Under the pieces are notes generated by a model that was given only the letters and a program-made list of their open reading frames with translations, was not told the DNA's origin and did not search any database. A program made the position numbers and the translations under genes. Source: Nemertoderma westbladi (lineage: Eukaryota > Animalia > Xenacoelomorpha). From it: a stretch of 39,853 bases of DNA. Positions 11,853 to 39,853 of this stretch are shown piece after piece. Every line of letters starts with the position of its first letter. The stretch's first letter is position 1. Location of the stretch: assembly GCA_032718475.1 (NCBI GenBank), contig JAUCBJ010007017.1:1-39853 (forward strand), given 5' to 3'.

Positions 11853-12285
11853 TTATGTTATGCCGTCGTATCGATGATATTGGCTGAGAAATTTTTTTTT
11901 TAATTGAATTGAGAAATGATTTGTAGTCCTTTTGTAGTTTAGTTGATTTATCTAAAGAGTTCCAGATTTTTATTAATGATACAATTATACTTGAGAAACC
12001 ATAATCATTATTTGTACTTGGTATTGTAATATTTCCTGTTCTAGAATTAATAATTTGATCGGCAGTAGTGTTTCTAATAGTTTTGTTATTAGTAGTATAA
12101 TGTGGGTTTCCCTGTATTCTAATGTTGTTTGTATGTAAAAGTGGTAGTTGTAATTGTTTGAAAGGGCGTGATAGTTTATTTACATATTTATAAAAAAATT
12201 TTAAACCAGTGTACTCTCTAAGTGAGTATAGATTTGGTAATTTAGCTAAGGTGCGTAGCTGCGTGCCAGTCAGGTCACGTATTTT
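11853..12285 (-). pseudogene. LINE ORF2 C-terminal region, frameshifted at a T8 run (12282-12289)
   Basis: Hand translation gives IRDLTGTQLRTLAKLPNLYSLREYTGLKFFYKY...IKIWNSLDK...FLNSIKKKILSQYHRYDGIT*, a typical CR1/L2-group C-terminus. Confidence 0.75.
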
Positions 12286-13297: not shown

Positions 13298-15972
13298 ATA
13301 TCACTTAGTTTCAGTTTCTGAGGGAAGACTGAAGTGGTTAGACATTTATTGATAATAAGTGTTAATGGAGTAACTATTTGGTATCTAACAAGTTTAATAA
13401 TTTTAGGTGGCATACTGGATGGACCATTTGGTTTATTTATATTTATTTTGCTTAGGATATCAAATACTTCCATGTCACTAACGTTGAAAAATGCAAATTC
13501 AGGCCTTAACTGCATCTGCGATTCTTCATTGTAAGAAGTGGTATTATTAGACCAATCCTTATTGTAGTGCTGGGGAGTATTTGATGTTTTGAGTCCTAGG
13601 TTTAAAAATACCCTATTGAAAATCTTAGCGATACTGGATTTAGTGTTGTAAATAATATTGTCCATATCCCTTAAGCGATTAATTTTGGTTTGTGCCTTTT
13701 TTTTATTTAGAATAGAATTGATTATATTCCACCGCAGTTTTGGATCCTTCGCAGTGCCAAATTTATCCCGCATGTGCTGGTTTTTCATATACTTATTTAG
13801 ATTATTATATTTGTTACGTGCACTTTTGAAGGCTTTATAATAAAAATCCTGTTTTGTGGATCGCCATTGTTGTAGTTTGTTCATTTTTTCTTTACGTAGT
13901 TCTTCAAGCTCCTTCGTCCACCATGGAGTATTGATCGGCGGTTTTTTGTTCTCGACAATCAATATTCTCCTGAATGGCGCATGGATATCAAGAACGGCCT
14001 CCATTTTCGCTTCCAAATAGTCATAGCAAAAATTTACGTCCGGACTGTGATACAATGGCGACCAATCAATTTTGTTAATGTCCTCAATGAATTTTGATTC
14101 CGAAAATTGTTTGAAGTTTCTAATAGTTTTCCAACTTTTTTCATTATTTTGGTTGTCCAATTTGTAATTTATATTTGTATTTAATATTACAGTTTCGTGA
14201 TCAGAAAAATCGCAAAATAGAGTAGATGTGTTAATTATTGGTAGATTGTTATCTGAGGTGATAATGAGGTCAAGTAAGGAGTTTTTTGTTTTTCCAAAAC
14301 GAGTCGGTTCGCTGCTATTAATTAATTTCAGGTCGTATTTAGAAAGCATTTCATGGAGATCCCTTGTTTTAATGTTATTTTTATCAAGAATATCGATATT
14401 AAAGTCACCTCCCATTATAATCTCGGTCGATGGATTGTTAATAGCATTCTCGATTTCCTCACTGAAATCTGTTATGAAATTCTTTGAGTTGGGTGGGTTA
14501 TAAGTAACATTTATAAGAAATCGATTATCTACTTCAACCCAAAGCGAGTCGTACGGTACCTTCTTATTTTTTATTTTGATGTCAGGACGTATTTTTTGAG
14601 ACATGTTGTCTGGTATATACAATAATACCCCACCTCCTCGTTTCCTCCTGCGATCGCAGCGATGAACGTTGAATCCCGGCAGAGCAATGGAGCGGTTCGA
14701 GTGTCTTTGTTTCAGCCAAGATTCTGTGATACCTATTATTATATTGCTTGAAATACCAGACAAGATATCCTTTAGTTCGTCATAATTTTTTACTAAGCTA
14801 CGGGTATTTAAGATCATATATTTCAGATTGTTTTGATTTATAATTAAGTGTTCTCGAATATTATCAGTATTTTTACTACTCCTCCTACGTTCTGATTGTT
14901 TATTTAATTTAATATTTATTTTTTTTAGGATTGGTCCTGGGTTTAGGTGTATATCTCCACATCTATGAATTAGCTGAGAGATTATTAAAGCATGTATTAT
15001 AGATATTTGTATAAGGATAGGAGTTAACAGTGCAATTATGTCTATAATTATATTTGCTTTGGAAGTTAATTTAGAAGTGTTATTTATAGAGCATATTGAG
15101 TTATTGTTAGTGGTAGTTTTATTTTTATTTGGTGATTTATGAGATACGAGACCTGGCTGCCACCAGCTACACGCGCTAATGTATATTATTATTATTGTAT
15201 TTAAATTACGTCTAATTGAAGTACTGGTGGGACATAGATGAGTAAGTATTCTTATTGTTAGTGATGTTAAAATGAAGTTTGATATTAGTATTGCTATTGG
15301 TAGAGTTGTAGTCAGTATGGAGGTAATAGATTTGTCAGTAAGCTTACGTTGAGTATAAAGAGATATATTGACTAGTAGTCCTAGTATTATATTACATATT
15401 ACGAGTGTCGATACCATTAAATTATATTTTAATTTGTATTTTTTGGATTTATATTTGATATACCGTAATGCACCCGTTATCAATGAATTAAGATACGACA
15501 TAGTAGATATGCATACTTTTGAGAAAATTTTTCGACGAATTAAATTGCAAATGATAGTAAATATAAATTTGGTTGAGATATATGTAAATATATATATCAA
15601 CTTTATTAAGGAGGAGGGATGTATCATTCCACTACCTATAATAACAACCAACAATCGTAACAATGTGTAACCATTACAACAATGATGTATAATTTGTAGT
15701 TTTACTTTATGTGACGTATTAAAAACGGCAGGTTTGATGTATAATTTGAGCCCCCGCTTCGCAAGTTTTACGAATGTTAATATTAAAAAAGAAAATAGGA
15801 GGCGCTGATTGAACATTAGTATAAGACAGCAGAAATCACAAAATATAGTCATACCAGAGAATTTCTCAAAGCGACCATTGCAGTAAAATAGAGTATCGCA
15901 GTAAAATATACTAAGTATAATCATTATACTATAAAAAATGGTAAAATTTATCATTAAATAACAACTGAACAT
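13294..15972 (-). CDS. LINE ORF2 N-terminal part: hydrophobic leader, 2A-like motif, APE endonuclease, linker
   Basis: Motifs CGDIHLNPGP, NTRSL, ITESWL, GGGVLLY, YNPP, GDFN, LDL, SDH, PWW. The frame breaks at a short duplication at 13273-13296. Confidence 0.93.
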   Translation of the reverse strand: MFSCYLMINFTIFYSIMIILSIFYCDTLFYCNGRFEKFSGMTIFCDFCCLILMFNQRLLFSFLILTFVKLAKRGLKLYIKPAVFNTSHKVKLQIIHHCCNGYTLLRLLVVIIGSGMIHPSSLIKLIYIFTYISTKFIFTIICNLIRRKIFSKVCISTMSYLNSLITGALRYIKYKSKKYKLKYNLMVSTLVICNIILGLLVNISLYTQRKLTDKSITSILTTTLPIAILISNFILTSLTIRILTHLCPTSTSIRRNLNTIIIIYISACSWWQPGLVSHKSPNKNKTTTNNNSICSINNTSKLTSKANIIIDIIALLTPILIQISIIHALIISQLIHRCGDIHLNPGPILKKINIKLNKQSERRRSSKNTDNIREHLIINQNNLKYMILNTRSLVKNYDELKDILSGISSNIIIGITESWLKQRHSNRSIALPGFNVHRCDRRRKRGGGVLLYIPDNMSQKIRPDIKIKNKKVPYDSLWVEVDNRFLINVTYNPPNSKNFITDFSEEIENAINNPSTEIIMGGDFNIDILDKNNIKTRDLHEMLSKYDLKLINSSEPTRFGKTKNSLLDLIITSDNNLPIINTSTLFCDFSDHETVILNTNINYKLDNQNNEKSWKTIRNFKQFSESKFIEDINKIDWSPLYHSPDVNFCYDYLEAKMEAVLDIHAPFRRILIVENKKPPINTPWWTKELEELRKEKMNKLQQWRSTKQDFYYKAFKSARNKYNNLNKYMKNQHMRDKFGTAKDPKLRWNIINSILNKKKAQTKINRLRDMDNIIYNTKSSIAKIFNRVFLNLGLKTSNTPQHYNKDWSNNTTSYNEESQMQLRPEFAFFNVSDMEVFDILSKININKPNGPSSMPPKIIKLVRYQIVTPLTLIINKCLTTSVFPQKLKLSDI

Positions 15973-16065
15973 TATAAAATGGTCATTCTGGATATTATTT
16001 AGAGATACAGTCGATCTGGATAAAATGTTAAAAATACGTTTGATATATTTATTTACGATTTATCA

Positions 16066-17538
16066 TTAAAAATATTGCTCAGTCAGCGGTGTGCTGCTGG
16101 CTGTAATTGCTCTAATTAGGGCTATCGCAGAATCGACTATTGGGTTACTGTCATTACGATTCATTCCGCGATTCCCGTATTGATTGATCGCATCCAACGG
16201 AGTTGGCCGCTGCAACTGCCGAGATGTTGCCGTGTTGAATTGTTGTAGCTGCGGGTTTCTGTACATCGGCTGGTTATGTGGGATTTGCCGTCCCATGGAT
16301 GGAGGAAAACTCCAGGCCGATTGTATTGGAAATTGGCGGCTCGGGAGAGACGGGAACTCTAGCGAGTTGTTCATTAGATGAGCTGGTTGTGGGTTACCGG
16401 TATTCGAGCGAATGAATGGTTGCCGGATCGTTCTGACGGTTTGATCTTTGTTTGTTAGCTTTGTTCCGTGTAGCTGCGATTTAATGTTCCTTGCTAAGAT
16501 ACCTACATACTTTGCCGCGATATGCTTGGAATCGACTAAGTGAGATCGTGTTATATTATCCTGAGGAACGAGAATCACGCCATTAATATTAGCACATAGA
16601 GTTTGTAGTGCCTTGTTAATCGGTTCCACGTTGACATCGGATCTAACGATGAGCTCGGATACGTAAAAACGACAATTTGGCCACCGTTTACGCAGTATTT
16701 CGATACTTCTCTTCGTGTTCCGCGTAATTAAGGGTATATTAGTATTATCCTGGTCACAGTCATTCGTCCCCGCTTGTATATAGATCTGGTTAATTACTCC
16801 GTTAAACTTTGATATTGCTGAGGATGCGTTCCGGATCAGGTCCATAGTGGTAGAACTCGGTACCATCCGGGCCACACAGTCAATTTGCCGAGGGTATATA
16901 TATTTGCGATTACTGTCCATAAACAGTAGTGTCTCCACCAGATTATCTCTATTCTCAGCCGAAGGGACCCTGGTGTATCCCTCGGAGGTGGCACCATCAT
17001 CCGGTAAAGGTACAATCGGGGTGGCTCCATTGTCGTCCTTACTAGTGGATGCCGGACTGGATGTAGAATTGGGATCACCATTCGCAGTAACGAAAGCGGT
17101 TCCGCTATCTGATATTTCGGTGGTTTGGTCCGGGTCTGGCGAAATGATTGGAGCCACATTCCTCTTGTGTGCTTCACTGAGGCTGTGACCTCCCAAGGAG
17201 GGAGGTTTGTTTACATTTTCACTAAGAAGGGTTTTTGTGTTACCGGTAGGCATATTGGTACCGGTATCAATAGACTTACCGGTGCCGGTAGTTGAAACAG
17301 AACCGGTAGGCCTACCGCCGTTATCCTGGTTATGGCAACAACAGCCATTGATAAGCGATTCCACAGCGTTCTCGAGTTTGAATATTCGGATCATATCTCC
17401 ACGTCGGATTTCTTTTAGCTGGGCCAATTCCATTTCCAGTGTTACCAACCTCTCAAACGTAAGCCTACTGCGGTTGCTTGGAGAGCACTCGGTATAACAT
17501 AAACTTCCGTCGGCGTTGGGTGGTATGGTGTGGGAGAA
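16066..17538 (-). CDS. LINE ORF1 C-terminal part: coiled coil plus SGNH/GDSL-like esterase
   Basis: LFMDS, QAGTND and DSKH match SGNH blocks I, III and V. The frame is open from ~17538, upstream of the ORF-track start. Confidence 0.8.
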   Translation of the reverse strand, partial: FSHTIPPNADGSLCYTECSPSNRSRLTFERLVTLEMELAQLKEIRRGDMIRIFKLENAVESLINGCCCHNQDNGGRPTGSVSTTGTGKSIDTGTNMPTGNTKTLLSENVNKPPSLGGHSLSEAHKRNVAPIISPDPDQTTEISDSGTAFVTANGDPNSTSSPASTSKDDNGATPIVPLPDDGATSEGYTRVPSAENRDNLVETLLFMDSNRKYIYPRQIDCVARMVPSSTTMDLIRNASSAISKFNGVINQIYIQAGTNDCDQDNTNIPLITRNTKRSIEILRKRWPNCRFYVSELIVRSDVNVEPINKALQTLCANINGVILVPQDNITRSHLVDSKHIAAKYVGILARNIKSQLHGTKLTNKDQTVRTIRQPFIRSNTGNPQPAHLMNNSLEFPSLPSRQFPIQSAWSFPPSMGRQIPHNQPMYRNPQLQQFNTATSRQLQRPTPLDAINQYGNRGMNRNDSNPIVDSAIALIRAITASSTPLTEQYF

Positions 17539-18014
17539 TTATCTACCGGTATGCTGGTCAGTGTAGTATCTATTTCATTATTGGTACCGTAGGCGGTATA
17601 TCTAGGCCTATCTGAACTGCCTTCCATGAAATACGATTCGTTGAGCGCCCGTCTGGGACTATCGTTACCGTTACCATTACCGGCTGGAACTTTCGTAATT
17701 CCGTAATCGCAAACCGTTGTTTCATTGTCACTTTCATAGGGACTGGTGTCTGGAGTATTCCCTGTGGACTCATCTACGGTTGGGATGATAGTTTTATTTC
17801 TCATATTGATCCTTCGTTGGTAAACTTCGATTTGATCGTCTGGATGTAGTTTGAAGTGTGCCCGTAAACGTAATATTAGTGTCGGTTTTGGGCCAGTTGT
17901 TGGTAGTTTTAAAAAGCGCAGATCTTCTCTTAAAACTTTATTAGTTTGTGTTTCATAATTAAACTCGAGCGTCGTCAGGTCTTCAGCACCATTAGCCTCT
18001 GCTGAGTTGGCCAT
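17442..18014 (-). CDS. LINE ORF1 N-terminal part with SAP-like motif
   Basis: TNKVLREDLRFLKLPTTGPKPTLILRL fits the SAP pattern (LxxxLxxxxLxxxGxKxxLIxRL). It overlaps the downstream ORF in the -1 frame. Confidence 0.72.
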   Translation of the reverse strand: MANSAEANGAEDLTTLEFNYETQTNKVLREDLRFLKLPTTGPKPTLILRLRAHFKLHPDDQIEVYQRRINMRNKTIIPTVDESTGNTPDTSPYESDNETTVCDYGITKVPAGNGNGNDSPRRALNESYFMEGSSDRPRYTAYGTNNEIDTTLTSIPVDNSPTPYHPTPTEVYVIPSALQATAVGLRLRGW

Positions 18015-18159
18015 ATACAGTCAGTGGTTAGTCTGACAGTCAGATTATCAGTTAGGTTAGGTTATTACTGTATTGCAATTTCTGAGCTGAAGTTTACATA
18101 TTACTTTGATTGGTTCACTTACAACTTATGTAATATATCAATCCAGCCAATGAACTAAC

Positions 18160-20104: not shown

Positions 20105-21488
20105 CTCTTTTTCCAAACGTTCTATTTTGTCGAGGGTATCTCTCAGTTCACTTTCGTTTCCGTTATCTTTGCGATGCAAGACTTCTTTGGCGCGTCTCAG
20201 GAATGACATCATGGTCATCTCCGATTCTTCATAACGCTGCCATCCAGTCTCTAGGTCTCCGAGCAAGTCATTTCTCATTCTCACGTCCGATTGCAGGTTG
20301 GCCAGAGATCGTTCCATGGTCAGGTAATCTTTGTTTAAGCTTGTCTGTTCCTTCAACATCCTCAACGTGTCGTACACAGTCGGGACTAGCTTTTCTACCT
20401 CTTTTATAAGCAATGCATGGTCAGCAGCTGCGGATTTAGCTCCAACAAGATTGTCAATGTAAGGGAATTTTGACATATTTACTCCTATCTGATTGAGTTT
20501 GCCTTCTACAACTGATGCCTGCTGTCTACAGTCAAATCTTCGCAGAATTCCTTCTGATCTGGTTGCCATGGTAGCCGAATCATTTAGAAAATCATCCAAA
20601 CGTTTTCTTTCATTTTTAAGTTTAACTTCCTCATCCTCGATTGTGTTTTGATCTCCAATAGTCCGGATTTCGTCCAACTTTCTTTGAAGATTTTCGAAGT
20701 CATGAATTTTATTTTTTCCTTCAGAGTTTCGCTTTTTAAATTCATATAAAATATCGTTATATTTTCTGGAGTCAGATTCAGATTCCCTTAACTCTGCCAA
20801 TATCTGTTCACTGCGATCCAACCACGCGGATAATTCTGCAAATTGCTTCCGGTATTCCGCGAACAGCCCCGGGGCTCGCTCCATCGCTAGAAGTTCCTCA
20901 GCCCGACGCCTTTGGAGTTCGGCTAGACGGGAGCGAAGATCATGATTACCCGAGCCATCGGCACATAAATTTCGCAAACATTCATCGCTGATTTGGTCGA
21001 AGTTGTCATTAAAGAACTCGCGATGCTCGGCAATAATTGAGGCAACATTGTCCCCATCTCGTAGCCGTCGTCTTCCATCACTCAAACGTGACTCTCCCTG
21101 GGAAATCAACTCCAGGAGTATCTGTTTGTCCTTAAGTTGTTGCGATTCTGCTCTATCCAGCAGTAACCGGTCCTTAACCAGATCAAATCGTCGAGAAATT
21201 TCGTGCACTTCATCAGAGATTGTTTGCTTATCATCCTTATCACCAATGATGGTTAACAATGCATCACTGCTGCGTCGGAACTCCAGAGCTAGGCCCGATT
21301 TTGCTATTAGTTCATCGCAGTCAGTAATTCGTCTGTTGTAATCTGACATAGGCTTTCTCAAAAGGGCCTCGGCATTCGATAACCAATCATTGGCATTTGA
21401 TAAATCCTCTCGGTATCTTTTCCATTCCGGTCTGTTCTTCTGCTGGTTCCGCTGCCATTGTATAGCCACAGACTTCAGTTTTTCATAT
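20105..21488 (-). CDS. SYNE1: Nesprin-1-like large exon, 1384 nt, phase 2/0
   Basis: ORF 20090..21469 has spectrin repeats (EWKRY..DWLSNAE, LSAWLDRSE, GWQRYE); acceptor ttttattag, donor gtgaat. Confidence 0.92.
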
Positions 21489-22500: not shown

Positions 22501-22896
22501 TAATTTCAAATCAAGAAATTTGGGTAATTTTGGGAATTATGTACATGCATCAACTGTTAACATGTCACGTTGCATTTACGGTTTCAGAAATTCCTCTTCT
22601 GCTTTAAAAAGAGTCCATATTAGCTATTAGCACCCATTTCGTGAATGCCATTCACTCTGAGTACTGAGTAGCATCATAGTGTATGCACAATCAATCAATC
22701 AATGGGATGGAATCTGGTAGCTTATTCCTAAGAGTCTTATTACATACCGGTAAGGCACCAGATCCAATTGATGGTGTATACATACAGTATAAACCATGAT
22801 GCAACTCCAGTAGAACATGGTATTCGTGAGACTTGTACTAATAGACAATATTCGGTTCGCTAAGGTTCGTTCGGGTAGTAGATTGTATTGAATCAT

Positions 22897-25472
22897 AGAA
22901 TATATCTGTAGTAAATTGACTTATATTGAATTAAAGAATATATCTGTAGTAAATTGACTTATATTGAATTAAAGAATATATCTGTAGTAAATTGACTTAT
23001 ATTTAATTAAAGAATATATCTGTAGTAAATTGACTTATATTGAATTAAAGAATATATCTGTAGTAAATTGACTTATATTGAATTAAAGAATATATCTGTA
23101 GTAAATTGACTTATATTGAATTAAAAAATATATATGTAGTAAATTGACTTATATTGAATTAAAGAATATATCTGTAGTAAATTGACTTATATTGAATTAA
23201 AGAATATATCTGTAGTAAATTGACTTATATTGAATTAAAGAATATATCTGTAGTAAATTGACTTATATTGAATTAAAGAATATATCTGTAGTAAATTGAC
23301 TTATATTGAATTAAAGAATATATCTGTAGTAAATTGACTTATATTGAATTAAAAAATATATATGTAGTAAATTGACTTATATTGAATTAAAGAATATATC
23401 TGTAGTAAATTGACTTATATTGAATTAAAGAATATATCTGTAGTAAATTGACTTATATTGAATTAAAGAATATATCTGTAGTAAATTGACTTATATTGAA
23501 TTAAAGAATATATCTGTAGTAAATTGACTTATATAGAATTAAAGAATATATCTGTAGTAAATTGACTTATATTGAATTAAAGAATATATCTGTAGTAAAT
23601 TGACTTATATTGAATTAAAGAATATATCTGTAGTAAATTGACTTATATTGAATTAAAGAATATATCTGTAGTAAATTGACTTATATTGAATTAAAGAATA
23701 TATCTGTAGTAAATTGACTTATATTGAATTAAAGAATATATCTGTAGTAAATTGACTTATATTGAATTAAAGAATATATCTGGAGTAAATTGACTTATAT
23801 TGAATTAAAGAATATATCTGTAGTAAATTGACTTATATTGAATTAAAGAATATATCTGTAGTAAATTGACTTATATTGAATTAAAGAATATATCTGTAGT
23901 AAATTGACTTATATTGAATTTAAGAATATATCTGTAGTAAATTGACTTATATTGAATTAAAGAATATATCTGGAGTAAATTGACTTATATTGAATTAAAG
24001 AATATATCTGTAGTAAATTGACTTATATTGAATTAAAGAATATATCTGTAGTAAATTGACTTATATTGAATTAAAGAATATATCTGTAGTAAATTGACTT
24101 AATTGAATTAAAGAATATATCTGTAGTAAATTGACTTATATTGAATTAAAGAATATATCTGTAGTAAATTGACTTATATTGAATTAAAGAATATATCTGT
24201 AGTAAATTGACTTATATTGAATTAAAGAATATATCTGTAGTAAATTGACTTATATTGAATTAAAGAATATATCTGTAGTAAATTGACTTATATTGAATTA
24301 AAAAATATATATGTATTAAATTGACTTATATTGAATTAAAGAATATATCTGTAGTAAATTGACTTATATTGAATTAAAGAATATATCTGTAGTAAATTGA
24401 CTTATATTGAATTAAAGAATATATCTGTAGTAAATTGACTTATATTGAATTAAAGAATATATCTGTAGTAAATTGACTTATATAGAATTAAAGAATATAT
24501 CTGTAGTAAATTGACTTATATTGAATTAAAGAATATATCTGTAGTAAATTGACTTATATTGAATTAAAGAATATATCTGTAGTAAATTGACTTATATTGA
24601 ATTAAAAAATATATATGTTGTAAATTGACTTATATTGAATTAAAGAATATATCTGTAGTAAATTGACTTATATTGAATTAAAGAATATATCTGTAGTAAA
24701 TTGACTTATATTGAATTAAAGAATATATCTGTAGTAAATTGACTTATATTGAATTAAAGAATATATCTGTAGTAAATTGACTTATATAGAATTAAAGAAT
24801 ATATCTGTAGTAAATTGACTTATATTGAATTAAAGTATATATCTGTAGTAAATTGACTTATATTGAATTAAAGAATATATCTGTAGTAAATTGACTTATA
24901 TTGAATTAAAGAATATATCTGTAGTCAATTGACTTATATTGAATTAAAGAATATATCTGTAGTAAATTGACTTATATTGAATTAAAGAATATATCTGTAG
25001 TAAATTGACTTATATTGAATTAAAGAATATATCTGTAGTAAATTGACTTATAATGAATTAAAGAATATATCTGTAGTAAATTGACTTATATTGAATTAAA
25101 GAATATATTTGTAGTAAATTGACTTATATTGAATTAAAGAATATATCTGTAGTAAATTGACTTATTTTGAATTAAAGAATATATCTGTAGTAAATTAACT
25201 TATATAGAATTAAAGAATATATCTGTAGTAAATTGACTTATATAGAATTAAAGAATATATCTGTAGTAAATTGACTTATATTGAATTAAAGTATATATCT
25301 GTAGTAAATTGACTTATATTGAATTAAAGAATATATCTGTAGTAAATTGACTTATATTGAATTAAAGAATATATCTGTAGTAAATTGACTTATATTGAAT
25401 TAAAGAAAATATCTGTAATAAATTGACTTATATTGAATTAAAGAATATATCTGTAGTAAATTGACTTATATT
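22897..25472. repeat. 38-bp AT-rich minisatellite (AGAATATATCTGTAGTAAATTGACTTATATTGAATTAA)n, ~68 copies
   Basis: 38-bp period visible directly (22897, 22935, ...); highly homogeneous. Confidence 0.97.
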
Positions 25473-25645
25473 ATTCGAATAGTTTTATTACTTACAATTA
25501 GAAACTGATGAAGAAGGATAGTTTATTGTACAATTGGTTGACCTGCTTCGTTTCTTTGTATTGTTCAAATTATGACTCACATGATTAACTGCTCCTAATT
25601 ACAGGTATTGTACCAGATGCACTTAGAATAGCCAGAATTATCTCT

Positions 25646-26284
25646 GTGTTTAAATCTGAGGACCCCACCCTGCCCCAAAAGTATAGACCCATCATATCCG
25701 TGCTCCCACTGTTCTCCAAAATCTACGAAAAAATTGTATACAAGCAATTGATTAAGTACCTCAATAGCCATAACATTCTCTCACCAAGGCAATTTGGTTT
25801 CCGTCTTAAACGCTCAACTCAACTAGCACTACTATCTCTCCTTGATAATATAACATCTGCAGCTGAAAATAAAGACATTTCAATTGCCATATCTATTGAC
25901 CTTGCCAAGGCCTTTGATACAGTAAACCACGATATCCTCATTCAAAAACTACAGGCATATGGGATTGGTGGAAACGCGCTGAACTGGTTTAAGAGCTACT
26001 TAAGTAACCGTAAACAATCTGTTGCCATAGGTAACAGTTCTTCTGCTGACCTCCTTAATATAAACTATGGGGTGCCGCAAGGATCCATTTTGGGACCCCT
26101 ATTATTCCTTATTTACTGTAACGACATCGTCAATGTTTCACAAAAAATATTTTTTATTTTATTTGCTGACGACACAAATATTGTTTGCTCACACAAGGAT
26201 ATTGATACACTTATTACGGCTGTGAATGTGGAACTTGATAAACTTTTTAAATGGTTTTGTGTAAACCGTATTTCCCTAAATTAA
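25646..26284 (+). pseudogene. Reverse transcriptase fragment of the truncated LINE
   Basis: Canonical non-LTR RT motifs; continues after frameshifts in 26395..26592, ~26662..26834 and 28683..28898. Confidence 0.9.
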
Positions 26285-26831: not shown

Positions 26832-28720
26832 TGACCTCAGTGTCGGCTGTTCACTCACATAACACGCGTGACCTCAGTATCGGCTGTTCACTCACATAAC
26901 ACGCGTGACCTCAGTGTCGGCTGTTCAATCACATAACACGCGTGACCTCAGTGTTGGCTGTTCACTCACATAACACGCGTGACCTCAGTATCGGCTGTTC
27001 ACTCACATAACACGCGTGACCTCAGTGTCGGCTGTTCACTCACATAACACGCGTGACCTCAGTGTCGGCTGTTCACTCACATAACACGCGTGACCTCAGT
27101 GTCGGCTGTTCACTCACATAACACGCGTGACCTCAGTGTCGGCTGTTCACTCACATAACACGCGTGACCTCAGTGTCGGCTGTTCACTCACATAACACGC
27201 GTGACCTCAGTATCGGCTGTTCACTCACATAACACGCGTGACCTCAGTGTCGGCTGTTCACTCACATAACACGCGTGACCTCAGTGTCGGCTGTTCACTC
27301 ACATAACACGCGTGACCTCAGTGTCGGCTGTTCACTCACATAACACGCGTGACCTCAGTGTCGGCTGTTCACTCACATAACACGCGTGACCTCAGTGTCG
27401 GCTGTTCACTCACATAACACGCGTGACCTCAGTGTCGGCTGTTCACTCACATAACACGCGTGACCTCAGTGTCGGCTGTTCACTCACATAACACGCGTGA
27501 CCTCAGTGTCGGCTGTTCACTCACATAACACGCGTGACCTCAGTGTCGGCTGTTCACTCACATAACACGCGTGACCTCAGTGTCGGCTGTTCACTCACAT
27601 AACACGCGTGACCTCAGTGTCGGCTGTTCACTCACATAACACGCGTGACCTCAGTGTCGGCTGTTCACTCACATAACACGCGTGACCTCAGTGTCGGCTG
27701 TTCACTCACATAACACGCGTGACCTCAGTGTCGGCTGTTCACTCACATAACACGCGTGACCTCAGTGTCGGCTGTTCACTCACATAACACGCGTGACCTC
27801 AGTGTCGGCTGTTCACTCACATAACACGCGTGACCTCAGTGTCGGCTGTTCACTCACATAACACGCGTGACCTCAGTTTCGGCTGTTCACTCACATAACA
27901 CGCGTGACCTCAGTGTCGGCTGTTCACTCACATAACACGCGTGACCTCAGTATCGGCTGTTCAATCACATAACACGCGTGACCTCAGTGTCGGCTGTTCA
28001 ATCACATAACACGCGTGACCTCAGTATCGGCTGTTCACTCACATAACACGCGTGACCTCAGTGTCGGCTGTTCACTCACATAACACGCGTGACCTCAGCG
28101 TCGGCTGTTCAATCACATAACACGCGTGACCTCAGTATCGACTGTTCACTCACATAACACGCGTGACCTCAGTGTCGGCTGTTCACTCACATAACACGCG
28201 TGACCTCAGTGTCGGCTGTTCACTCACATAACACGCGTGACCTCAGTGTCGGCTGTGTTCACTCACATAACACGCGTGACCTCAGTATCGGCTGTTCACT
28301 CACATAACACGCGTGACCTCAGTATCGGCTGTTCACTCACATAACACGCGTGACCTCATTATCGGCTGTTCACTCACATAACACGCGTGACCTCAGTGTC
28401 GGCTGTTCACTCACATAACACGCGTGACCTCAGTATCGGCTGTTCAATCACATAACACGCGTGACCTCAGTGTCGGCTGTTCACTCACATAACACGCGTG
28501 ACCTCAGTATCGGCTGTTCAATCACATAACACGCGTGACCTCAGTGTCGGCTGTTCAATCACATAACACGCGTGACCTCAGTATCGGCTGTTCACTCACA
28601 TAACACGCGTGACCTCAGTGTCGGCTGTTCACTCACATAACACGCGTGACCTCAGTGTCGGCTGTTCACTCACATAACACGCGTGACCTCAGTTTCGGCT
28701 GTTCGCTCACATAACACGCG
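26832..28720. repeat. 37-bp minisatellite (TGACCTCAGTGTCGGCTGTTCACTCACATAACACGCG)n, 51 copies, derived from LINE ORF2
   Basis: 37-bp period; 1889 bp = 51x37 plus one 2-bp insertion; the unit encodes TSVSAVHSHNTR. Confidence 0.96.
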
Positions 28721-29241: not shown

Positions 29242-29986
29242 CTGCACATTGCATGCATGATACCGTGAACACCATAATAGTTATTATTATTTTATTTACT
29301 CCCAGTATTTCACAATTATTATATTATATTATGTATTATTCAATTTATTGCATGTCTTTGTGCGGTAAATGTTGATGAATAAGAATAAAAATAAGAATAA
29401 GAATTCATAAATTCTAATAATTTACCTTATTAATTGTGTCGGTATTAAAGAATTGTGTCGGTAGCTAATATCCACCAAAAGTAATACCAGACACTTTGTT
29501 TACATGTTTCCCAGACTGCCAGAATAATTTTATATCTCCTGGACTAGAATGCCTCCCGTTTGCAATAATGAAATGCAGAGGAGATGCTTGTTTGGATGCC
29601 ATCTGGATCCCAAATGAATGGGGGAATTCGTACGCGTTACATATAACGCCATTGCGGTGCAACTCCCATATAATAATAGGCAATCGTAAGCAATCGATAA
29701 CCCCCCCCCCCCCCCCCCCCCCCCCAATATGGAGACCCGCCTATATAAACTGTATGTATATATATACCATACACACACATCGTAGCATATTGCTTCTCTT
29801 TGTACAATAATTATGCGTCATATCTGTAGGAATACAGGGTGATTTATACGTTTACATAATATGTACGATTGAGTCACTGTGCGAAGTATTTTTAAGTAAA
29901 AATGTGATTGTAAATTAGGAATTTCCTCTCATCATAAGTTTTTAAATTTTTTACATTCTTTAATTCATTAACAAATATAATATAAA

Positions 29987-30331
29987 ATGTCACGCCTTTT
30001 AAAAGAAATTATTATCCTTAGTTTCCTGTTGGTGTTCCATCTAGCGGCAGGAGTTGATATCGAATGTTACACTTACGAGTATTTCTGCGACATGTCGCTA
30101 GATGGCGGTGGCGTTTGTTACGGTCTGTTGCCGGGCGACAGCCGCTTGTGTACCGGGGATGGAGTCAAGTACTGCTACACGGGGGTCTATTACGAGGAGA
30201 CCAACCCGTCTGTAGTATACTACAAGGGCGGATGTTCGAGCTGCGATAAGTTGGGGATGTTGAGCGGGACGTGTCAGAGTCTGGGGTCTCCGCTGACTCA
30301 AGTCTCTGACTCAAATCAACGGTGTATCAAG
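29987..30331 (+). CDS. Nested gene exon 1: secreted Cys-rich Ly6/uPAR (three-finger)-like protein
   Basis: aaaATG start; signal peptide MSRLLKEIIILSFLLVFHLAAG; IECY start; KYCY and KGGC motifs; donor AAG|gtacgt, phase 0; GC-rich against an AT-rich background. Confidence 0.85.
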
Positions 30332-30761
30332 GTACGTTGTAACTATGGAGTTCTGTAGGTCTATGTCTGTCTGGCCTTGCTGCTTTTATTTAGGGCGTGT
30401 GGGACAACATTCCGATGCTGTAAATAATAATTTTATAAATTTTAAAAATGAAAGAATAAAATCTGACTAAACTAACGCCCAACTTTGTTCAATAAATTAC
30501 TGTGGCTAATTAGTTTCCACCAACGTTGTGCCCAAGCTATAAATGGCCGTGTAAAACACTGTATAATATTAATTCCATTTAAATTTCATCATGCTTCTTT
30601 AGCGAATAATTACCGTTTTCAACAAAATTATGTTCTGCTGTGGTTTCAAATCAAAATATAATTGTACTGTATAGAGTTTTCGTGCGATTATCTTATGATA
30701 CCGTCACCTTAATAAATAAATATTTTTCAGCCGTTACAACTGACTGTAAATATATTTTCAG

Positions 30762-30896
30762 AGATGCTGTGGTCTGGATCCCGAGATGACCACCCAGGAG
30801 CAAGAAGATGCAGTTTCCACGGTAACTAAGTGCAACATGCCGGACTACCCAATAGCAGAACCGAGTGTGCCACCCCCAGAATCGGACGATTTATAA
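30762..30896 (+). CDS. Nested gene exon 2 (RCCGLDPEMTTQEQEDAVSTVTKCNMPDYPIAEPSVPPPESDDL*)
   Basis: Acceptor attttcag, phase 0; supplies the CC...CN terminus; spliced product 159 aa with 12 Cys. Confidence 0.78.
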   Translation, partial: RCCGLDPEMTTQEQEDAVSTVTKCNMPDYPIAEPSVPPPESDDL

Positions 30897-31442
30897 TTTA
30901 CGTTTATCTGCGACCACCGACCTTGTACGTACAGTCGAATTAAATTCCAAAAGTTACAAACAGATTTACACAAACATATTTACAAAAACATATATTGGGA
31001 AAAACGATTTAATTCAATATGTTTTTTCTGAGATTAATTTTCAGTGGACTAACACCCATATTAATTAATTGACCTCAAAATGTAGGATTAGAAGAAATAT
31101 CATCTTTTGGATACATGGATGAGCGCAGATGTTAATATAAAGTCTCTTATAAATTTTATAATTATTAATTCCATTGTAGTAATTTGTACTAGTAATTTAC
31201 ATATATTACAGTTTGAACTGGTTTAAAAAGTGACCTATCATAAAAAGTTTGGTGCATTTTGTGTGAATGGTTAGGTATTATTGTTGGACTGTACAACTGT
31301 ACTGTCTTGATGTTACATACACTTAACTTGTTCTTTTCTGTAAAACTATAAGTAAATTCCACCCATTTTCAGTGTTTTGTTTTTGTACTGTGTACAGTAC
31401 TGTTTATACAGTATAGGCCTACAATGTAAATAATATACTCAC

Positions 31443-31683
31443 AGATCTACAGTTTCATTAACTGTGTTCTCCATATATTCTTTATCTAAAGCACCAGTGG
31501 TAATGTTAGCTCTCCTGACTTCCTCTCTCGCACTCAGCATGTTATCGACTAGACCCCTGTAGTATTTCTCGTCAGATGTGTTGAAAAACTTTGCGTATCT
31601 TTGCAGGGCCTCTGTTTCGGTTCCCCGGACTTCAAGTTTATCCAGAAGATCAAGCCCTCGATTAGCCCAGGGTGTAATTTTGC
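31443..31683 (-). CDS. SYNE1: Nesprin-1-like exon (KITPWANRG...TVDL), 241 nt, phase 1/2
   Basis: Acceptor aatacag, donor gtgagt; phase matches the exon at 21488. Confidence 0.85.
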
Positions 31684-32187
31684 CTGTATTAGTAGAAAGG
31701 ATTATATATAAAGTATATTGCATCATATTGATTCAAATTATTTTGTATTTAATTTATAAATTTCCAAAGTGACATACAGTATTCGTATCAGATGGGGCGA
31801 GCCACGAAGTCTGAGCCCGTCCGCAATGCATATTTGACCCGAACCACTACTAAACAATATATGATACTGTTTGCTGTTCCCTACTCTTATATATTTTTAT
31901 ACTGATATACAGAATAATATATTATTCTGTAATGTTGCATCAGATTATATTTGATTGAATTGTTTTTAATGTCATGGGTATCATTCATACTCCCAGCCAT
32001 TGCCGGCTTATCCGACATAACAATATTACATTTACATACAAAACATTAACAACAACTGCACAATAACTTCACAAAATTAACTGCACAATAAAGACCTGAC
32101 AAGATAGTTTATGGTTTATTAATTGAGAGAGTATAAAAACGTTTTTTATGGTTGCTATGTTTATAGTTGTCATATATATTTACAAAC

Positions 32188-32352
32188 CTATGCAATCATG
32201 AATATCGTTTAGAGGTGGAGATATTTCACTAAACATCCTGATTTGATCTCCAGCTGCAGTCCGTATGCCAAGCAATCTGTCTTTGATCATTTTAAGCGTG
32301 TTGAGCATGGATGAAACAGCTTCAGGAGATAAATCTTTTACCATGGATTGCG
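32188..32352 (-). CDS. SYNE1: Nesprin-1-like exon (AQSMVKDLSPE...HDCI), 165 nt, phase 1/1
   Basis: Acceptor ttcttcag, donor gtttgt. Confidence 0.85.
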
Positions 32353-32847
32353 CTGAAGAATTACAATAAACACGAGTGAACAGTGACACAGGACAGAATT
32401 CCTATAGGGTCAGGTATACTAAGTAAGTGATATGTTTAATAGGCTACTTGTGTAAGCGCTTTATAAATATATTAGGGTTAAATAATATTATGTTGAAAAA
32501 TAGGGTCTATACCCTGGTTCAAAAAATAATAAGTGTAAGTATCAGTCAATTTGACGTAGGGGCCTACCACCTACCAGTCTAATTGATCCAACTTTCTTCT
32601 GTATGTACGTATATTACAATCACATCACATCAAACGTAACCCTGTTATATCTGATTACACAAGAAACACACAAGTATTCAAACCCCTTCTTTATAAGAAG
32701 TTAAAATAAAAATCCCTTTCGCTGAAAACTGAATTAAACATAACCATTTTTGAGTTAAATTAATCTCCTCTTAAAACAAACAATTTCTAGACCATATTTC
32801 TGAAAACGTTTATAGCTTCTGTTTCCTTACAATCCCAAATAACATAC

Positions 32848-33032
32848 CTCCCATCGATGTCGTTTTAAATAGTGTTTCCATTTCAGTAATTTCTTCTCTG
32901 ACGTTCTCGAGGTCTTCAATGTTGTATTTGACAGGGAAGTAGGCGCAGAGGACATTGCCATTGAGCAAGATGTCCGCGTCTTCTATCCAAGACTCTAGTT
33001 TATCCACACTTGTATTATATTCTTCCATTAGT
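32848..33032 (-). CDS. SYNE1: Nesprin-1-like exon (LMEEYNTSVDKLESWIEDA...SMG), 185 nt, phase 2/1
   Basis: Acceptor ttttctag, donor gtatgt. Confidence 0.87.
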
Positions 33033-33311
33033 CTAGAAAAATATATATGTAATCTTAATGAATTTTGGAGCAGTTTGGTAATTTAGTAGCAAATTAAAGT
33101 TGTTGCAAAACTTTACTGTCTTGCATTCCATCAACAAATAAATCATAGACTCAACCAGTAAGTCCTGAATTAATGATATGTGTAAATGTGTCTTCAAAAT
33201 TATGGTGATTGTTTGCAAACATATAACGCCAAGCAATAAATTACTTGCTGTGTAGTTAAGTCATTTTTTCATATGTTTGAACCGTAACCGTTTCAGCCTA
33301 AACCAACTTAC

Positions 33312-33511
33312 CTTGATACCTCGTCAGCTCTCATGTAAACCCGCACGCAATCGAATATATCACGCCATCTAGAGTTGAGTAGGAGAAGCTGATGTTTGAT
33401 ATCCAATGCAACTTCGTCGTCAGTGCAATCAATGAGGAAGTTGCCGCAGCTGTTCATTTCCGTGTGAATTCGCTGCCAATGTTTCAAATTCGCGAAGAAT
33501 TGTTTCTGTTC
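33312..33511 (-). CDS. SYNE1: Nesprin-1-like exon (EQKQFFANLKHW...GNFLIDC...QLLLLNSRWRDIF...ADEVS), 200 nt, phase 0/2
   Basis: Acceptor attttag, donor gtaagt. Closely resembles vertebrate nesprin-1 as I recall it (FFRNLPHW...GNFLIETC...QLLLLNGRWRELF), which is the main basis for the gene call. Confidence 0.88.
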
Positions 33512-33949
33512 CTAAAATCATAAAACCACAACCGATCGCGAAGAATTCAAACAGATTGGTAGGGTCGATTTATTTGTCAGATATTTGAAAATGAAATCGA
33601 ATAAACGGTGGGATGGTTAAAGAGTCACCGTTGGCTGATTTGAGCTTCTGAAATGAGCTCTTGTCAGACTGGCTGCCAAGTAAACGTGTATTGGAAAACT
33701 TAGTCAAACCTATCCTTTTAAACAACGTTAGAGCTACTTGGGTATGATTTATTTGTGTGACTTTTTATTTCTATTTTCGGCGAATAGCTCACCATGGGAA
33801 TGAATAAATATTATGAATATGAAATAACAGATTTGTTTGTAACATGATAAATCTATAATTAAATATTAATATTAACTGAACAATGAAATATATATAGTTG
33901 ATGCATAATATATGGTATGGATTGTACCTCGTCCGGCCGATGTACCAAC

Positions 33950-34042
33950 CTCGTCTGGCCTATGTACCATTGGTTCTGCTGTGTCCAACCATTTCTGCAA
34001 ACTATCTACGGATTCATTGTATTTCAACCAATAATCCAAAAC
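33950..34042 (-). CDS. SYNE1: Nesprin-1-like exon (VLDYWLKYNESVDSLQKWLDTAEPMVHRPDE), 93 nt, phase 0/0
   Basis: Acceptor tatttag, donor gttggt (the only one in phase). Resembles recalled nesprin-1 VISNWDRY..VASLQAWLEDAE. Confidence 0.85.
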
Positions 34043-34611
34043 CTAAATAAGGAAAAAAAACATTATCAACATAAGAAACGTTCATCATCAACAGCAGCAA
34101 CATCATTTACAATAATGTGCAATTTATAGTTTGCATGTGAAAGAATATATGCTCAACGTATAGCGAGATACCATATTAATCCACCCATAAAAAATGCAAA
34201 CTCATAGATAAAAAAACCCAAAAAATAACATTAAACCAAATCCAGGTGGAGGCAAGAAGGCACAGGGTGCTAGGCCAGTTACAAATATGTCTACATAATA
34301 CAATAAAAATTTAGTACTGCGGAAACACACATTAAGAAGACATTGCAACTAGGTATGATGTCCTTCCATTATGTAAGTATAATTTTGGTTAATATTTAAT
34401 TTCTGCTTTCTGGGTTATAATTTCGGGACTACCTTAGGGGTTAGAAATAAGTAAAGTAAACAACGAAAATTTAATATGCCTCTCCTCCAGGTTCGATCAC
34501 GGAACCTGCCAGAAGTGGATCAAACGATTAACCTCGAAATCGTTAGTTGGTTATATTAAGATATTGAGTTGCCAGGATATTGCATGTAAATCATGTTGTA
34601 AATTTTCTTTT

Positions 34612-37600
34612 CAACTTACCTCCTCTAACATTGTTCGCATACTCTTTCCAACTTACCTCCTCTAACATTGTTCGCATACTCTTTCCAACTTACCTCCTCT
34701 AACATTGTTCGCATACTCTTTCCAACTTACCTCCTCTAACATTGTTCGCATACTCTTTCCAACTTACCTCCTCTAACATTGTTCGCATACTCTTTCCAAC
34801 TTACCTCCTCTAACATTGTTCGTTTCTTTCCAACTTACCTCCTCTAACATTGTTCGCATACTCTTTCCAACTTACCTCCTCTAACATTGTTCGCATACTC
34901 TTTCCAACTTACCTCCTCTAACATTGTTCGCATACTCTTTCCAACTTACCTCCTCTAACATTGTTCGCATACTCTTTCCAACTCACCTCCTCTAACATTG
35001 TTCCCATACTCTTTCCAACTTACCTCCTCTAAGATTGTTCGCATACTCTTTCCAACTTACCTCCTCTAACATTGTTCGCATACTCTTTCCAACTTACCTC
35101 CTCTAACATTGTTCGCATACTCTTTCCAACTTACCTCCTCTAACATTGTTCGCATACTCTTTCCAACTCACCTCCTCTAACATTGCTCGTTTCTTTCCAA
35201 CTTACCTTCTCTAACATTGTTCGCATACTCTTTCCAACTTACCTCCTCTAACATTGTTCGCATACTCTTTCCAACTCACCTCCTCTAACATTGCTCGTTT
35301 CTTTCCAACTTACCTTCTCTAACATTGTTCGCATACTCTTTCCAACTTACCTCCTCTAACATTGTTCGCATACTCTTTCCAACTTACCTCCTCTAACATT
35401 GTTCGCATACTCTTTCCAACTTACCTCCTCTAACATTGTTCGCATACTCTTTCCAACTTACCTCCTCTAACATTGTTCGCATACTCTTTCCAACTTACCT
35501 CCTCTAACATTGTTCGCATACTCTTTCCAACTCACCTCCTCTAACATTGCTCGTTTCTTTCCAACTTACCTTCTCTAACATTGTTCGCATACTCTTTCCA
35601 ACTTACCTCCTCTAACATTGTTCGTTTCTTTCCAACTCACCTCCTCTAACATTGTTCGCATACTCTTTCCAACTTACCTTCTCTAACATTGTTCGCATAC
35701 TCTTTCCAACTTACCTTCTCTAACATTGTTCGCATACTCTTTCCAACTTACCTCCTTTAACATTGTTCGTTTCTTTCCAACTTACCTTCACTAACATTGT
35801 TCGCATACTCTTTCCAACTTACCTCCTTTAACATTGCTCGTTTCTTTCCAACTTACCTCCTCTAACATTGTTCGCATACTCTTTCCAACTTACCTCCTCT
35901 AACATTGTTCGCATACTCTTTCCAACTCACCTCCTCTAACATTGTTCGCATACTCTTTCCAACTCACCTCCTCTAACATTGTTCGTTTCTTTCGAACTTA
36001 CCTCCTCTAACATTGTTCGCATACTCTTTCCAACTTACCTCCTCTAACACTGTTCGCATACTCTTTCCAACTTACCTCCTCTAACATTATTCGCATACTC
36101 TTTCCAACTTACCTCCTCTAACATTGTTCGTTTCTTTCCAACTTACCTTCTCTAACATTGTTCGCATACTCTTTCCAACTTACCTCCTTTAACATTGTTC
36201 GTTTCTTTCCAACTTACCTTCACTAACATTGTTCGCATACTCTTTCCAACTTACCTCCTTTAACATTGCTCGTTTCTTTCCAACTTACCTCCTCTAACAT
36301 TGTTCGCATACTCTTTCCAACTTACCTCCTCTAACATTGTTCGCATACTCTTTCCAACTTACCTCCTCTAACATTGTTCGCATACTCTTTCCAACTCACC
36401 TCCTCTAACATTGTTCGTTTCTTTCCAACTTACCTTCTCTAACATTGTTCGCATACTCTTTCCAACTTACCTCCTTTAACATTGTTCGTTTCTTTCCAAC
36501 TTACCTTCACTAACATTGTTCGCATACTCTTTCCAACTTACCTCCTTTAACATTGCTCGTTTCTTTCCAACTTACCTCCTCTAACATTGTTCGCATACTC
36601 TTTCCAACTTACCTCCTCTAACATTGTTCGCATACTCTTTCCAACTTACCTCCTCTAACATTGTTCGCATACTCTTTCCAACTCACCTCCTCTAACATTG
36701 TTCGCATACTCTTTCCAACTTACCTCCTCTAACATTGTTCGCATACTCTTTCCAACTCACCTCCTCTAACATTGTTCGCATACTCTTTCCAACTCACCTC
36801 CTCTAACATTGTTCGTTTCTTTCGAACTTACCTCCTCTAACATTGTTCGCATACTCTTTCCAACTTACCTCCTCTAACATTTTTCGCATACTCTTTCCAA
36901 CTTACCTTCTCTAACATTGTTCGCATACTCTTTCCAACTTACCTCCTCTAACATTGTTCGTTTCTTTCCAACTTACCTTCTCTAACATTGTTCGCATACT
37001 CTTTCCAACTTACCTTCTCTAACATTGTTCGCATACTCTTTCCAACTTACCTCCTTTAACATTGCTCGTTTCTTTCCAACTTACCTCCTCTAACATTGTT
37101 CGCATACTCTTTCCAACTTACCTCCTCTAACATTGTTCGCATACTCTTTCCAACTTACCTCCTCTAACATTGTTCGCATACTCTTTCCAACTCACCTCCT
37201 CTAACATTGTTCGCATACTCTTTCCAACTTACCTCCTCTAACATTGTTCGCATACTCTTTCCAACTCACCTCCTCTAACATTGTTCGCATACTCTTTCCA
37301 ACTCACCTCCTCTAACATTGTTCGTTTCTTTCGAACTTACCTCCTCTAACATTGTTCGCATACTCTTTCCAACTTACCTCCTCTAACATTGTTCGCATAC
37401 TCTTTCCAACTCACCTCCTCTAACATTGTTCGCATACTCTTTCCAACTTACCTCCTCTAACATTGTTCGCATACTCTTTCCAACTCACCTCCTCTAACAT
37501 TGTTCGCATACTCTTTCCAACTCACCTCCTCTAACATTGTTCGTTTCTTTCGAACTTACCTCCTCTAACATTGTTCGCATACTCTTTCCAACTTACCTCC

Positions 37601-39853
37601 TCTAACATTTTTCGCATACTCATTCCAACTTACCTTCTCTAACATTGTTCGCATACTCTTTCCAACTTACCTCCTCTAACATTGTTCGTTTCTTTCCAAC
37701 TTACCTCCTCTAACATTTTTCGCATACTCTTTCCAACTTACCTTCTCTAACATTGTTCGCATACTCTTTCCAACTTACCTCCTCTAACATTGTTCGTTTC
37801 TTTCCAACTTACCTTCTCTAACATTGTTCGCATACTCTTTCCAACTTACCTCCTCTAACATTGTTCGCATACTCTTTCCAACTCACCTCCTCTAACATTG
37901 TTCGTTTCTTTCGAACTTACCTCCTCTAACATTGTTCGCATACTCTTTCCAACTTACCTCCTCTAACATTGTTCGCATACTCTTTCCAACTTACCTCCTC
38001 TAACATTGCTCATTTCTTTCCAACTTACCTTCTCTAACATTGTTCGCATACTCTTTCCAACTTACCTCCTCTAACATTGTTCGCATACTCTTTCCAACTT
38101 ACCTTCTCTAACATTGTTCGCATACTCTTTCCAACTTACCTCCTCTAACATTGTTCGCATACTCTTTCCAACTTACCTCCTCTAACATTGTTCGCATACT
38201 CTTTCCAACTTACCTCCTCTAACATTGTTCGCATACTCTTTCCAACTTACCTCCTCTAACATTGTTCGTTTCTTTCCAACTTACCTCCTCTAACATTGTT
38301 CCCATACTCTTTCCAACTTACCTCCTCTAACATTGTTCGCATACTCTTTCCAACTTACCTCCTCTAACATTGTTCCCATACTCTTTCCAACTTACCTCCT
38401 CTAACATTGTTCGCATACTCTTTCCAACTTACCTCCTCTAACATTGTTCGCATACTCTTTCCAACTTACCTCCTCTAACATTGTTCGCATACTCTTTCCA
38501 ACTTACCTCCTCTAACATTGTTCGCATACTCTTTTCAACTTACCTCCTCTAACATTGTTCGCATACTCTTTCCAACTTACCTCCTCTAACATTGTTCGTT
38601 TCTTTCCAACTTACCTTCTCTAACATTGTTCGCATACTCTTTCCAACTTACCTTCTCTAACATTGTTCGCATACTCTTTCCAACTTACCTCCTCTAACAT
38701 TGTTCGCATACTCTTTCCAACTTACCTCCTCTAACATTGTTCGCATACTCTTTCCAACTTACCTCCTCTAACATTGTTCGTTTCTTTCCAACTTACCTTC
38801 TCTAACATTGTTCGCATACTCTTTCCAACTTACCTTCTCTAACATTGTTCGCATACTCTTTCCAACTTACCTCCTCTAACATTGTTCGCATACTCTTTCC
38901 AACTTACCTCCTCTAACATTGTTCGCATACTCTTTCCAACTTACCTCCTCTAATATTGTTCGCATACTCTTTCCAACTTACCTTCTCTAATATTGTTCGC
39001 ATACTCTTTCCAACTTACCTTCTCTAACATTGTTTGCATACTCTTTCCAACTTACCTTCTCTAACATTGTTCGCATACTCTTTCAAACTTACCTTCTCTA
39101 ACATTGTTCGGATACTCTTTCCAACTTACCTTCTCTAACATTGTTCGCATACTCTTTCCAACTCACCTCCTCTAACATTGCTCGTTTCTTTCCAACTTAC
39201 CTCCTCTAACATTGTTCGCATACTCTTTCCAACTTACCTCCTCTAACATTGTTCGTTTCTTTCCAACTTACCTCCTCTAACATTGTTCGCATACTCTTTC
39301 CAACTTACCTCCTCTAACATTGTTCGCATACTCTTTCCAACTTACCTCCTCTAACATTGTTCCCATACTCTTTCCAACTTACCTCCTCTAACATTGTTCG
39401 CATACTCTTTCCAACTTACCTCCTCTAACATTGTTCGCATACTCTTTCCAACTTACCTCCTCTAACATTGTTCCCATACTCTTTCCAACTTACCTCCTCT
39501 AACATTGTTCGCATACTCTTTCCAACTTACCTCCTCTAATATTGTTCGCATACTCTTTCCAACTTACCTTCTCTAACATTGTTCGCATACTCTTTCCAAC
39601 TTACCTTCTCTAACATTGTTCGCATACTCTTTCCAACTTACCTTCTCTAACATTGTTCGCATACTCTTTCCAACTTACCTTCTCTAACATTGTTTGCATA
39701 CTCTTTCCAACTCACCTCCTCTAACATTGCTCGTTTCTTTCCAACTTACCTCCTCTAACATTGTTCGCATACTCTTTCCAACTTACCTCCTCTAACATTG
39801 TTCGTTTCTTTCCAACTTACCTCCTCTAACATTGTTCGCATACTCTTTCCAAC
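34612..39853 (-). repeat. 37/34-bp minisatellite, ~140 copies, running off the window; unit = exon 3' end plus 5' splice site
   Basis: The minus-strand unit GGAAAGAGTATGCGAACAATGTTAGAGGAG|GTAAGTT translates as GKSMRTMLEE|donor. Confidence 0.96.

Follow-up and report, generated by a model that had tools for sequence, protein, structure and literature searches.

A large splice-donor minisatellite at a probable exon–intron boundary of a nesprin-1-like gene in Nemertoderma westbladi

The window analysed here, a stretch of 39,853 nt from Nemertoderma westbladi (Xenacoelomorpha; GenBank assembly GCA_032718475.1, contig JAUCBJ010007017.1), carries down its minus strand a series of open exons that are bordered by AG and GT and agree in phase. 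The Pfam family Spectrin_SYNE1 (PF25034) matches three of the twelve exons scanned, two of them above the cut-off, and because the exons at 34042–33950 and 33511–33312 match consecutive parts of this family the host gene is, by its domain matches, nesprin-1-like. Protein searches found no relative, most of the queries being limited in length and weak, and a search of the PDB gave only weak matches at the level of utrophin (E 0.7–0.8). The first of the two consecutive exons begins at Spectrin_SYNE1 position 97, so that positions 1–96 must come from upstream, and on that side the window ends within a tandem array of splice donors. From upstream to downstream the locus comprises:

34606–39853, minus strand: splice-donor minisatellite with no fewer than 144 units, each of 37 or 34 nt, from repeat and donor counts, extending past the window.
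34620–34647, minus strand: the 28 exon-derived nt of the last unit, ending ..KSMRTMLEE in phase 0, from the X3 contig match and the loose end that X1 and X3 (runs described below) both show behind 34647.
34614–34619, minus strand: the last donor, GTAAGT, which by inference is likely to stand where the ancestral donor stood with respect to the old intron.
34606–34610, minus strand: AAAGA on the intron side, with a second AAAGA exactly 37 nt upstream at 34647–34643, both sides having been read.
34043–34605, minus strand: ordinary residual intron of 563 nt with a pyrimidine tract and an AG acceptor, into which the last copy runs.
33950–34042, minus strand: downstream exon of 93 nt, phase 0-0, starting VLDYW (Spectrin_SYNE1 97–126 of 188, E 1.3e-6, on its own below the curated cut-off).
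33926–33969, minus strand: two-copy, 22-nt duplication of the end of exon 33950–34042 with its GT, from the repeat scan.
33312–33511, minus strand: next exon (Spectrin_SYNE1 128–187, E 1.1e-16, above the cut-off).
32848–33032, minus strand: further nesprin-like exon (weak Spectrin match, E 0.022).
20108–21488, minus strand: large nesprin-like exon (Spectrin_SYNE1, E 9.1e-9).

The repeat scan places a tandem array of period 37 and 144.3 copies at 34606–39853, and since it is clipped by the right edge of the window its 144 units are a lower bound. An earlier note on this DNA had described about 140 minus-strand donors in units of 37 or 34 nt with their intron-side end at 34612; the array is real, with 144 motifs of the form AG/GTRAGT (the slash marks the exon–intron border), while its end lies at 34606 and the figure of about 140 holds as a minimum for an array that leaves the window. 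The donors, counted as G/GTRAGT, run from 39820 to 34619 on the minus strand and all of them (144/144) keep AG/GTRAGT, a motif found beyond the array at one site in the window, at 33312, where it is a real exon end. Sites of the form MAG/GTRAGT number 32 across the window against a shuffle expectation of 1.47, and 31 of the 144 visible array donors carry this full consensus. The 143 complete units (113 of 37 nt and 30 of 34 nt) fall into 25 distinct types, the unit being composed of 28 exon bases and 9 intron bases. The array is very uniform, and the donors, taken as equal in the earlier note, are near-equal, three 9-mers being represented (GAG/GTAAGT 93 times, AAG/GTAAGT 31 times and GAG/GTGAGT 20 times). 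A change of glutamate to lysine in 31 of the 113 37-mers, together with the type that is shorter by 3 nt, indicates that no protein constraint acts on the units. There also seem to be recurring blocks of unit types along the array. When a 211-nt piece of it was folded, the centroid was unpaired over the units (z −1.75) and presented no structure that would hide the donors.

Each unit places AG directly before GT, an arrangement compatible with a recursive-splicing ladder in which AG/GT ratchet points would remove a long intron stepwise. The transcribed strand of the array is, however, 74% purine with a longest pyrimidine run of 4 nt, and this reading, to which we attach almost no credence, was rejected on the absence of a polypyrimidine tract from the units. 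A coding repeat was likewise rejected, every frame being stopped within three units; the 32-aa read-through frame over three units matched no Pfam family.

Short-read contigs from two studies show how the array is joined to the sequence upstream of it. In runs X1 (study P1) and X3 (study P2) unique upstream sequence meets the unit at 34647, and the loose ends behind this position are identical over 30 letters. With the join at 34647 the repeat unit set out in the earlier note stands, except that its leading GG is not exon-derived. The X3 contig, 430 nt in length, has a depth of 12.5 as compared with 18.3 for the flank, which is single-copy depth; its final 30 letters (28 exon nt and GT) are those of 34647–34618 with 0 mismatches, while the other 400 nt are unique. 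For X2 no upstream loose end is listed, and X4 and X5 are without cover at the last unit. X4 includes a plus-strand spliced joint and may be RNA; it covers none of the nesprin exons in 29800–34660. By manual translation the 30 upstream loose letters read V-Q-V-K-T-I-S-V-E with no stop and in the frame of the unit, an isoleucine codon straddling the join, although 10 open codons carry little weight by themselves and two of the three frames are open there by manual count. The single unique upstream exit and the in-frame join to 28 exon-like bases make it most likely that the parent exon ends within the unit, as the earlier note had proposed. The first unit most likely spans the host exon–intron boundary, on DNA evidence that comprises a unique in-frame join at single-copy depth and a following exon that starts at position 97 of Spectrin_SYNE1. 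The peptide of the unit and of the sequence upstream may resemble that of vertebrate nesprin-1. The upstream join coincides exactly with an AAAGA whose second copy lies 37 nt downstream, where the array meets the intron, and the presence of AAAGA at both ends is the pattern left by tandem duplication between short direct repeats, a route mentioned for Alu-derived arrays in the available portion of one report (PMC3389668). The AAAGA pair is likely to have been the microhomology that seeded the first duplication.

A dispersed satellite or an assembly artefact that resembles an exon end by chance would be in keeping with the fact that the window stops inside the array and that no contig crosses it. 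Both were raised in the earlier note as ways in which its reading might fail; as far as these checks, and that of the upstream exon end, could be carried out, they came out in favour of the note. Against them, the unit words occur at high depth in the short-read contigs of two studies, so that the contigs of another study also contain the array; the loose ends listed for X1 and X3 include one unique exit per side, a comparison that diverged copies of the unit elsewhere could escape; the exit on the upstream side meets the array at the predicted microhomology; and no 12-mer of the unit was found outside the array within the window. One unique exit per side fits a single locus better than an artefact, and on these exits and the depth in two studies the satellite or artefact reading was rejected; we regard it as largely refuted already and give it very little weight. 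The unit was not found in a search of metagenome contigs.

The same contigs hint at variation in the length of the array. In X1 unit words have a depth of 2866.7 and the flank one of 17.2; the corresponding values are 506.7 and 27.5 in X2, and 497.6 and 18.3–29.3 in X3. This gives, by manual calculation, a unit-to-flank ratio of about 167 in X1 as compared with about 17–27 in X2 and X3. Scaled by the 31-mer counts of the window, again manually, these depths would correspond to about 390 units in X1, about 34 in X2 and 34–54 in X3, estimates that serve as hints and not as measurements since contig depth is not copy number. X2 and X3 are two runs of one sample and their estimates agree; X1 may be the source sample of the window, and X2 and X3 represent a different, more divergent sample. 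The depths hint at a roughly tenfold difference in array length between samples.

Array formation is not confined to the nesprin exon end. Four large arrays occupy 11,555 of the 39,853 nt of the window (29%), one of them, of 37-nt units, lying within a LINE-like reading frame that it interrupts. Given that these four arrays fill so much of the window and that three of them are not copies of the nesprin exon end, the local genome is one that readily builds such arrays from any sequence. The two-copy, 22-nt duplication at the end of exon 33950–34042 is the smallest stage of the same kind of event; of the two sites that it presents the first is favoured by the collinearity of the Pfam match, which breaks off at position 126 and resumes at 128 in the next exon.

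The consequences of donor choice can be read from the sequence that follows the array. In agreement with the earlier note, the last copy passes into an ordinary intron of 563 nt with its AG acceptor at 34043, and the exon beyond it, which begins VLDYW, is open in phase 0 over 34042–33950. Use of the second donor adds 37 or 34 nt, either of which shifts the frame by one, and brings the reading frame to a stop after 27 nt of the next exon, with 64 nt of that exon still to come. Many junctions lie downstream of this premature stop, and by the usual rule an RNA with such an early stop is a target of nonsense-mediated decay (NMD). Read-through in phase 0 meets a stop before the second further donor in all of the 141 starts tested (141/141). 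Because any later donor yields a premature stop, the full protein is possible only through the first donor, and on this point too the earlier note was right. Skipping of the 93-nt exon would preserve the frame, which makes exon skipping a further available route.

The arrangement is documented in several genes, with the first donor dominant; the comparisons made here follow the portions of the published reports that were available. As in the 37-bp VNTR of F7 intron 7 (Borensztajn et al., 2006), the first unit spans the boundary and copies of the donor follow one another along the intron. The F7 VNTR is polymorphic, and the unit length of 37 that it shares with this array is a coincidence: it has 5–9 units of 4 exon and 33 intron bases with a modest donor (CV 74), whereas here there are at least 144 units of 28 exon and 9 intron bases with strong donors. 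In F7 splicing draws on the first alone of the 5–9 identical donors, the rest becoming active only once it is lost, although in minigenes perfect downstream sites took 70–90% of splicing (PMC1557585); first-donor use, shown for F7, would apply to the present array by analogy. LMNB2 and PDGF use the first donor as F7 does, and in 6-16 (25 pseudo-sites) and CBS (15–20 units in intron 13) the two nearest pseudo-sites are used besides it (all via PMC1557585). These four genes resemble the present case in having an authentic donor followed by repeated copies, in their case with fewer units. The 25-bp VNTR of ABCA7 intron 18 (De Roeck et al., 2018; PMC5954066), which extends from about 12 to 427 units and up to 10.7 kb, shares with this array a unit that includes the donor GT and a very large size range, and use of its second unit's donor results in a frameshift and NMD; its unit, however, starts with the GT and contains no exon sequence, while the unit described here has 28 exon bases. 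The mirages of lancelet Adh3 and of the globins BflGb6 and BflGb9 (PMC3087553) are likewise tandem duplications of exon–intron boundaries, with units of 10–160 bp, unstable in length and set in a polymorphic genome of invertebrate grade, and the available portion of that report describes no disturbance of splicing. The globin mirages have 3–6 units of 81–100% identity, in contrast to the far longer and very uniform array of Nemertoderma. By the sequence features tested, this array belongs to the exon-boundary minisatellites, with F7, CBS, 6-16, LMNB2, PDGF and the lancelet mirages; its kind is already known and its size is matched by ABCA7.

The most probable explanation, which we hold with good confidence, is that the array is a passenger VNTR, a slip-born 37-nt boundary repeat in which the first donor is likely to be used and the later ones are nearly silent. 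The array is likely to have begun with a slip between a pair of 5-nt direct repeats spaced 37 nt from each other, and its growth would then have been that of an ordinary minisatellite of variable length. With a whole donor contained in the unit (9 intron bases), the first copy would have retained a full donor, and the mRNA would have been unchanged by the duplication and by each expansion, which would hence have been tolerated. The donor nearest the exon's acceptor would be expected to win, as judged by the precedent of human F7 and by exon definition, leaving the later donors nearly silent. Rare use of the second or a later donor would bring a premature stop and clearance by NMD, and would be waste and not designed control.

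The same properties can be read as a length-dependent effect in cis, in which longer alleles would lead to the use of downstream donors and NMD, or to skipping of the 93-nt exon, and so tune nesprin-1. Every later donor does lead to a stop, and the 31 full-consensus donors among the 144 beat the likely authentic GAG/GT in consensus match; taken with the competition from perfect pseudo-sites in F7 minigenes, this makes a leak more plausible here than in F7. None of the 18 distinct substitution types hits any of the seven core donor positions (P 0.023 on a uniform and 0.037, or about 0.04, on a base-stratified expectation), while in the LINE-derived array two of the eight variant types break a donor-like GTGAGT. 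The substitution test excluded the 34-nt indel, and an 8-nt segment outside the donor is as quiet only when that indel is ignored; as a single small test in which singletons may be errors, it makes the absence of donor-breaking variants one weak point for function. The hint of tenfold variation in array length is also in line with an effect of dosage. The ABCA7 VNTR provides the nearest published test: in the available portion of the report its length raised downstream exon skipping and lowered expression, but had no effect on the retention of a single unit or on NMD (PMC5954066), and the role of NMD tuner suggested in the earlier note is left unsupported. A leak, even if present, may moreover be an unselected cost. 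An effect of length in cis is on balance unlikely, and we are more doubtful still of its strongest form, in which selection would preserve hundreds of strong donors and length, perhaps between 30 and 400 units, would dial the loss of nesprin-1 through NMD or skipping.

The earlier note had also suggested a U1 snRNP decoy or telescripting platform, that is, an array that loads U1 either to titrate it or to block early polyadenylation of the giant transcript. At least 144 U1-complementary sites with little stable structure are indeed present, in a gene with long AT-rich introns, but the counts of AATAAA do not favour such a role and leave it unsupported. The array contains 0 AATAAA and the 563-nt intron 0 AATAAA and 2 ATTAAA, while it is the 12.5-kb intron lower in the gene that carries AATAAA, 34 times, without any AG/GTRAG site, so that the array is not sited where shielding would be most needed. 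Hundreds of sites at a single locus are in addition tiny against the U1 pool, which is about a million per mammalian cell. A literature search, at the level of listings, returned nothing on U1-decoy arrays and no nesprin minisatellite, and we consider a U1 role highly improbable.

As things stand, the array, most probably a passenger VNTR, adds one large example to a known type of repeat. With hundreds of strong, near-identical donors and apparently short and long alleles it offers a natural test bed, which could probe both how strict the rule that the first donor wins is outside mammals and whether copy number has any cost in mRNA. A length-dependent leak, if shown and selected, would amount to an expression dial of a new kind; were this true, the length of the array would be a heritable and fast-mutating dial on a giant nuclear-envelope protein.

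Besides the splice-donor minisatellite (34606-39853; at least 144 units of 37 or 34 nt) in an intron of the nesprin-1-like host gene, which lies on the minus strand, the window holds the following repeats:

25-1855, minus strand: 17-nt array, 108 copies with a palindromic core
about 11800-18020, minus strand: near-full-length LINE in a nesprin intron
22886-25472: 38-nt array, 68 copies, 18% GC
26832-28720: 37-nt array, 51 copies

The 17-nt array at the left end begins a few bases past the donor of an exon that ends near 1861, and this exon end is not copied in its units. A two-copy, 22-nt duplication at 33926-33969 (minus strand) consists of the end of the next nesprin exon, the first downstream of the donor minisatellite (33950-34042), plus GT; the copies differ at two positions, both synonymous in the frame of the exon, and neither of their donors, GTTGGT and GTACAA, is strong.

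Read on the nesprin strand, every unit of the 38-nt array carries an acceptor-like TACTACAG, with no exon evident at these sites, and 44 units of the 37-nt array contain a donor-like GTRAG. The latter array interrupts a LINE-like frame on the plus strand, in its terminal part; this frame has an RVT_1 domain at 25592-26281. Frame breaks mark the second part of the minus-strand LINE, where endonuclease and reverse transcriptase follow SAP-domain and esterase-like frames.

A plus-strand gene is nested inside a 10-kb nesprin intron, with exons at 29987-30331 and 30762-30896, between which one contig from a public sequencing run, which may be RNA, skips 430 nt with GT..AG ends. Both exons are open, and their product has a signal-peptide-like start, eight cysteines and then CC...CN; it presumably resembles small secreted proteins of the Ly6/uPAR type. 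Pfam returned no significant match.

Unit types within the donor minisatellite seem to recur block-wise. Its transcribed strand is purine-rich with a strong G skew of about 0.72, a composition that could favour R-loops and instability.
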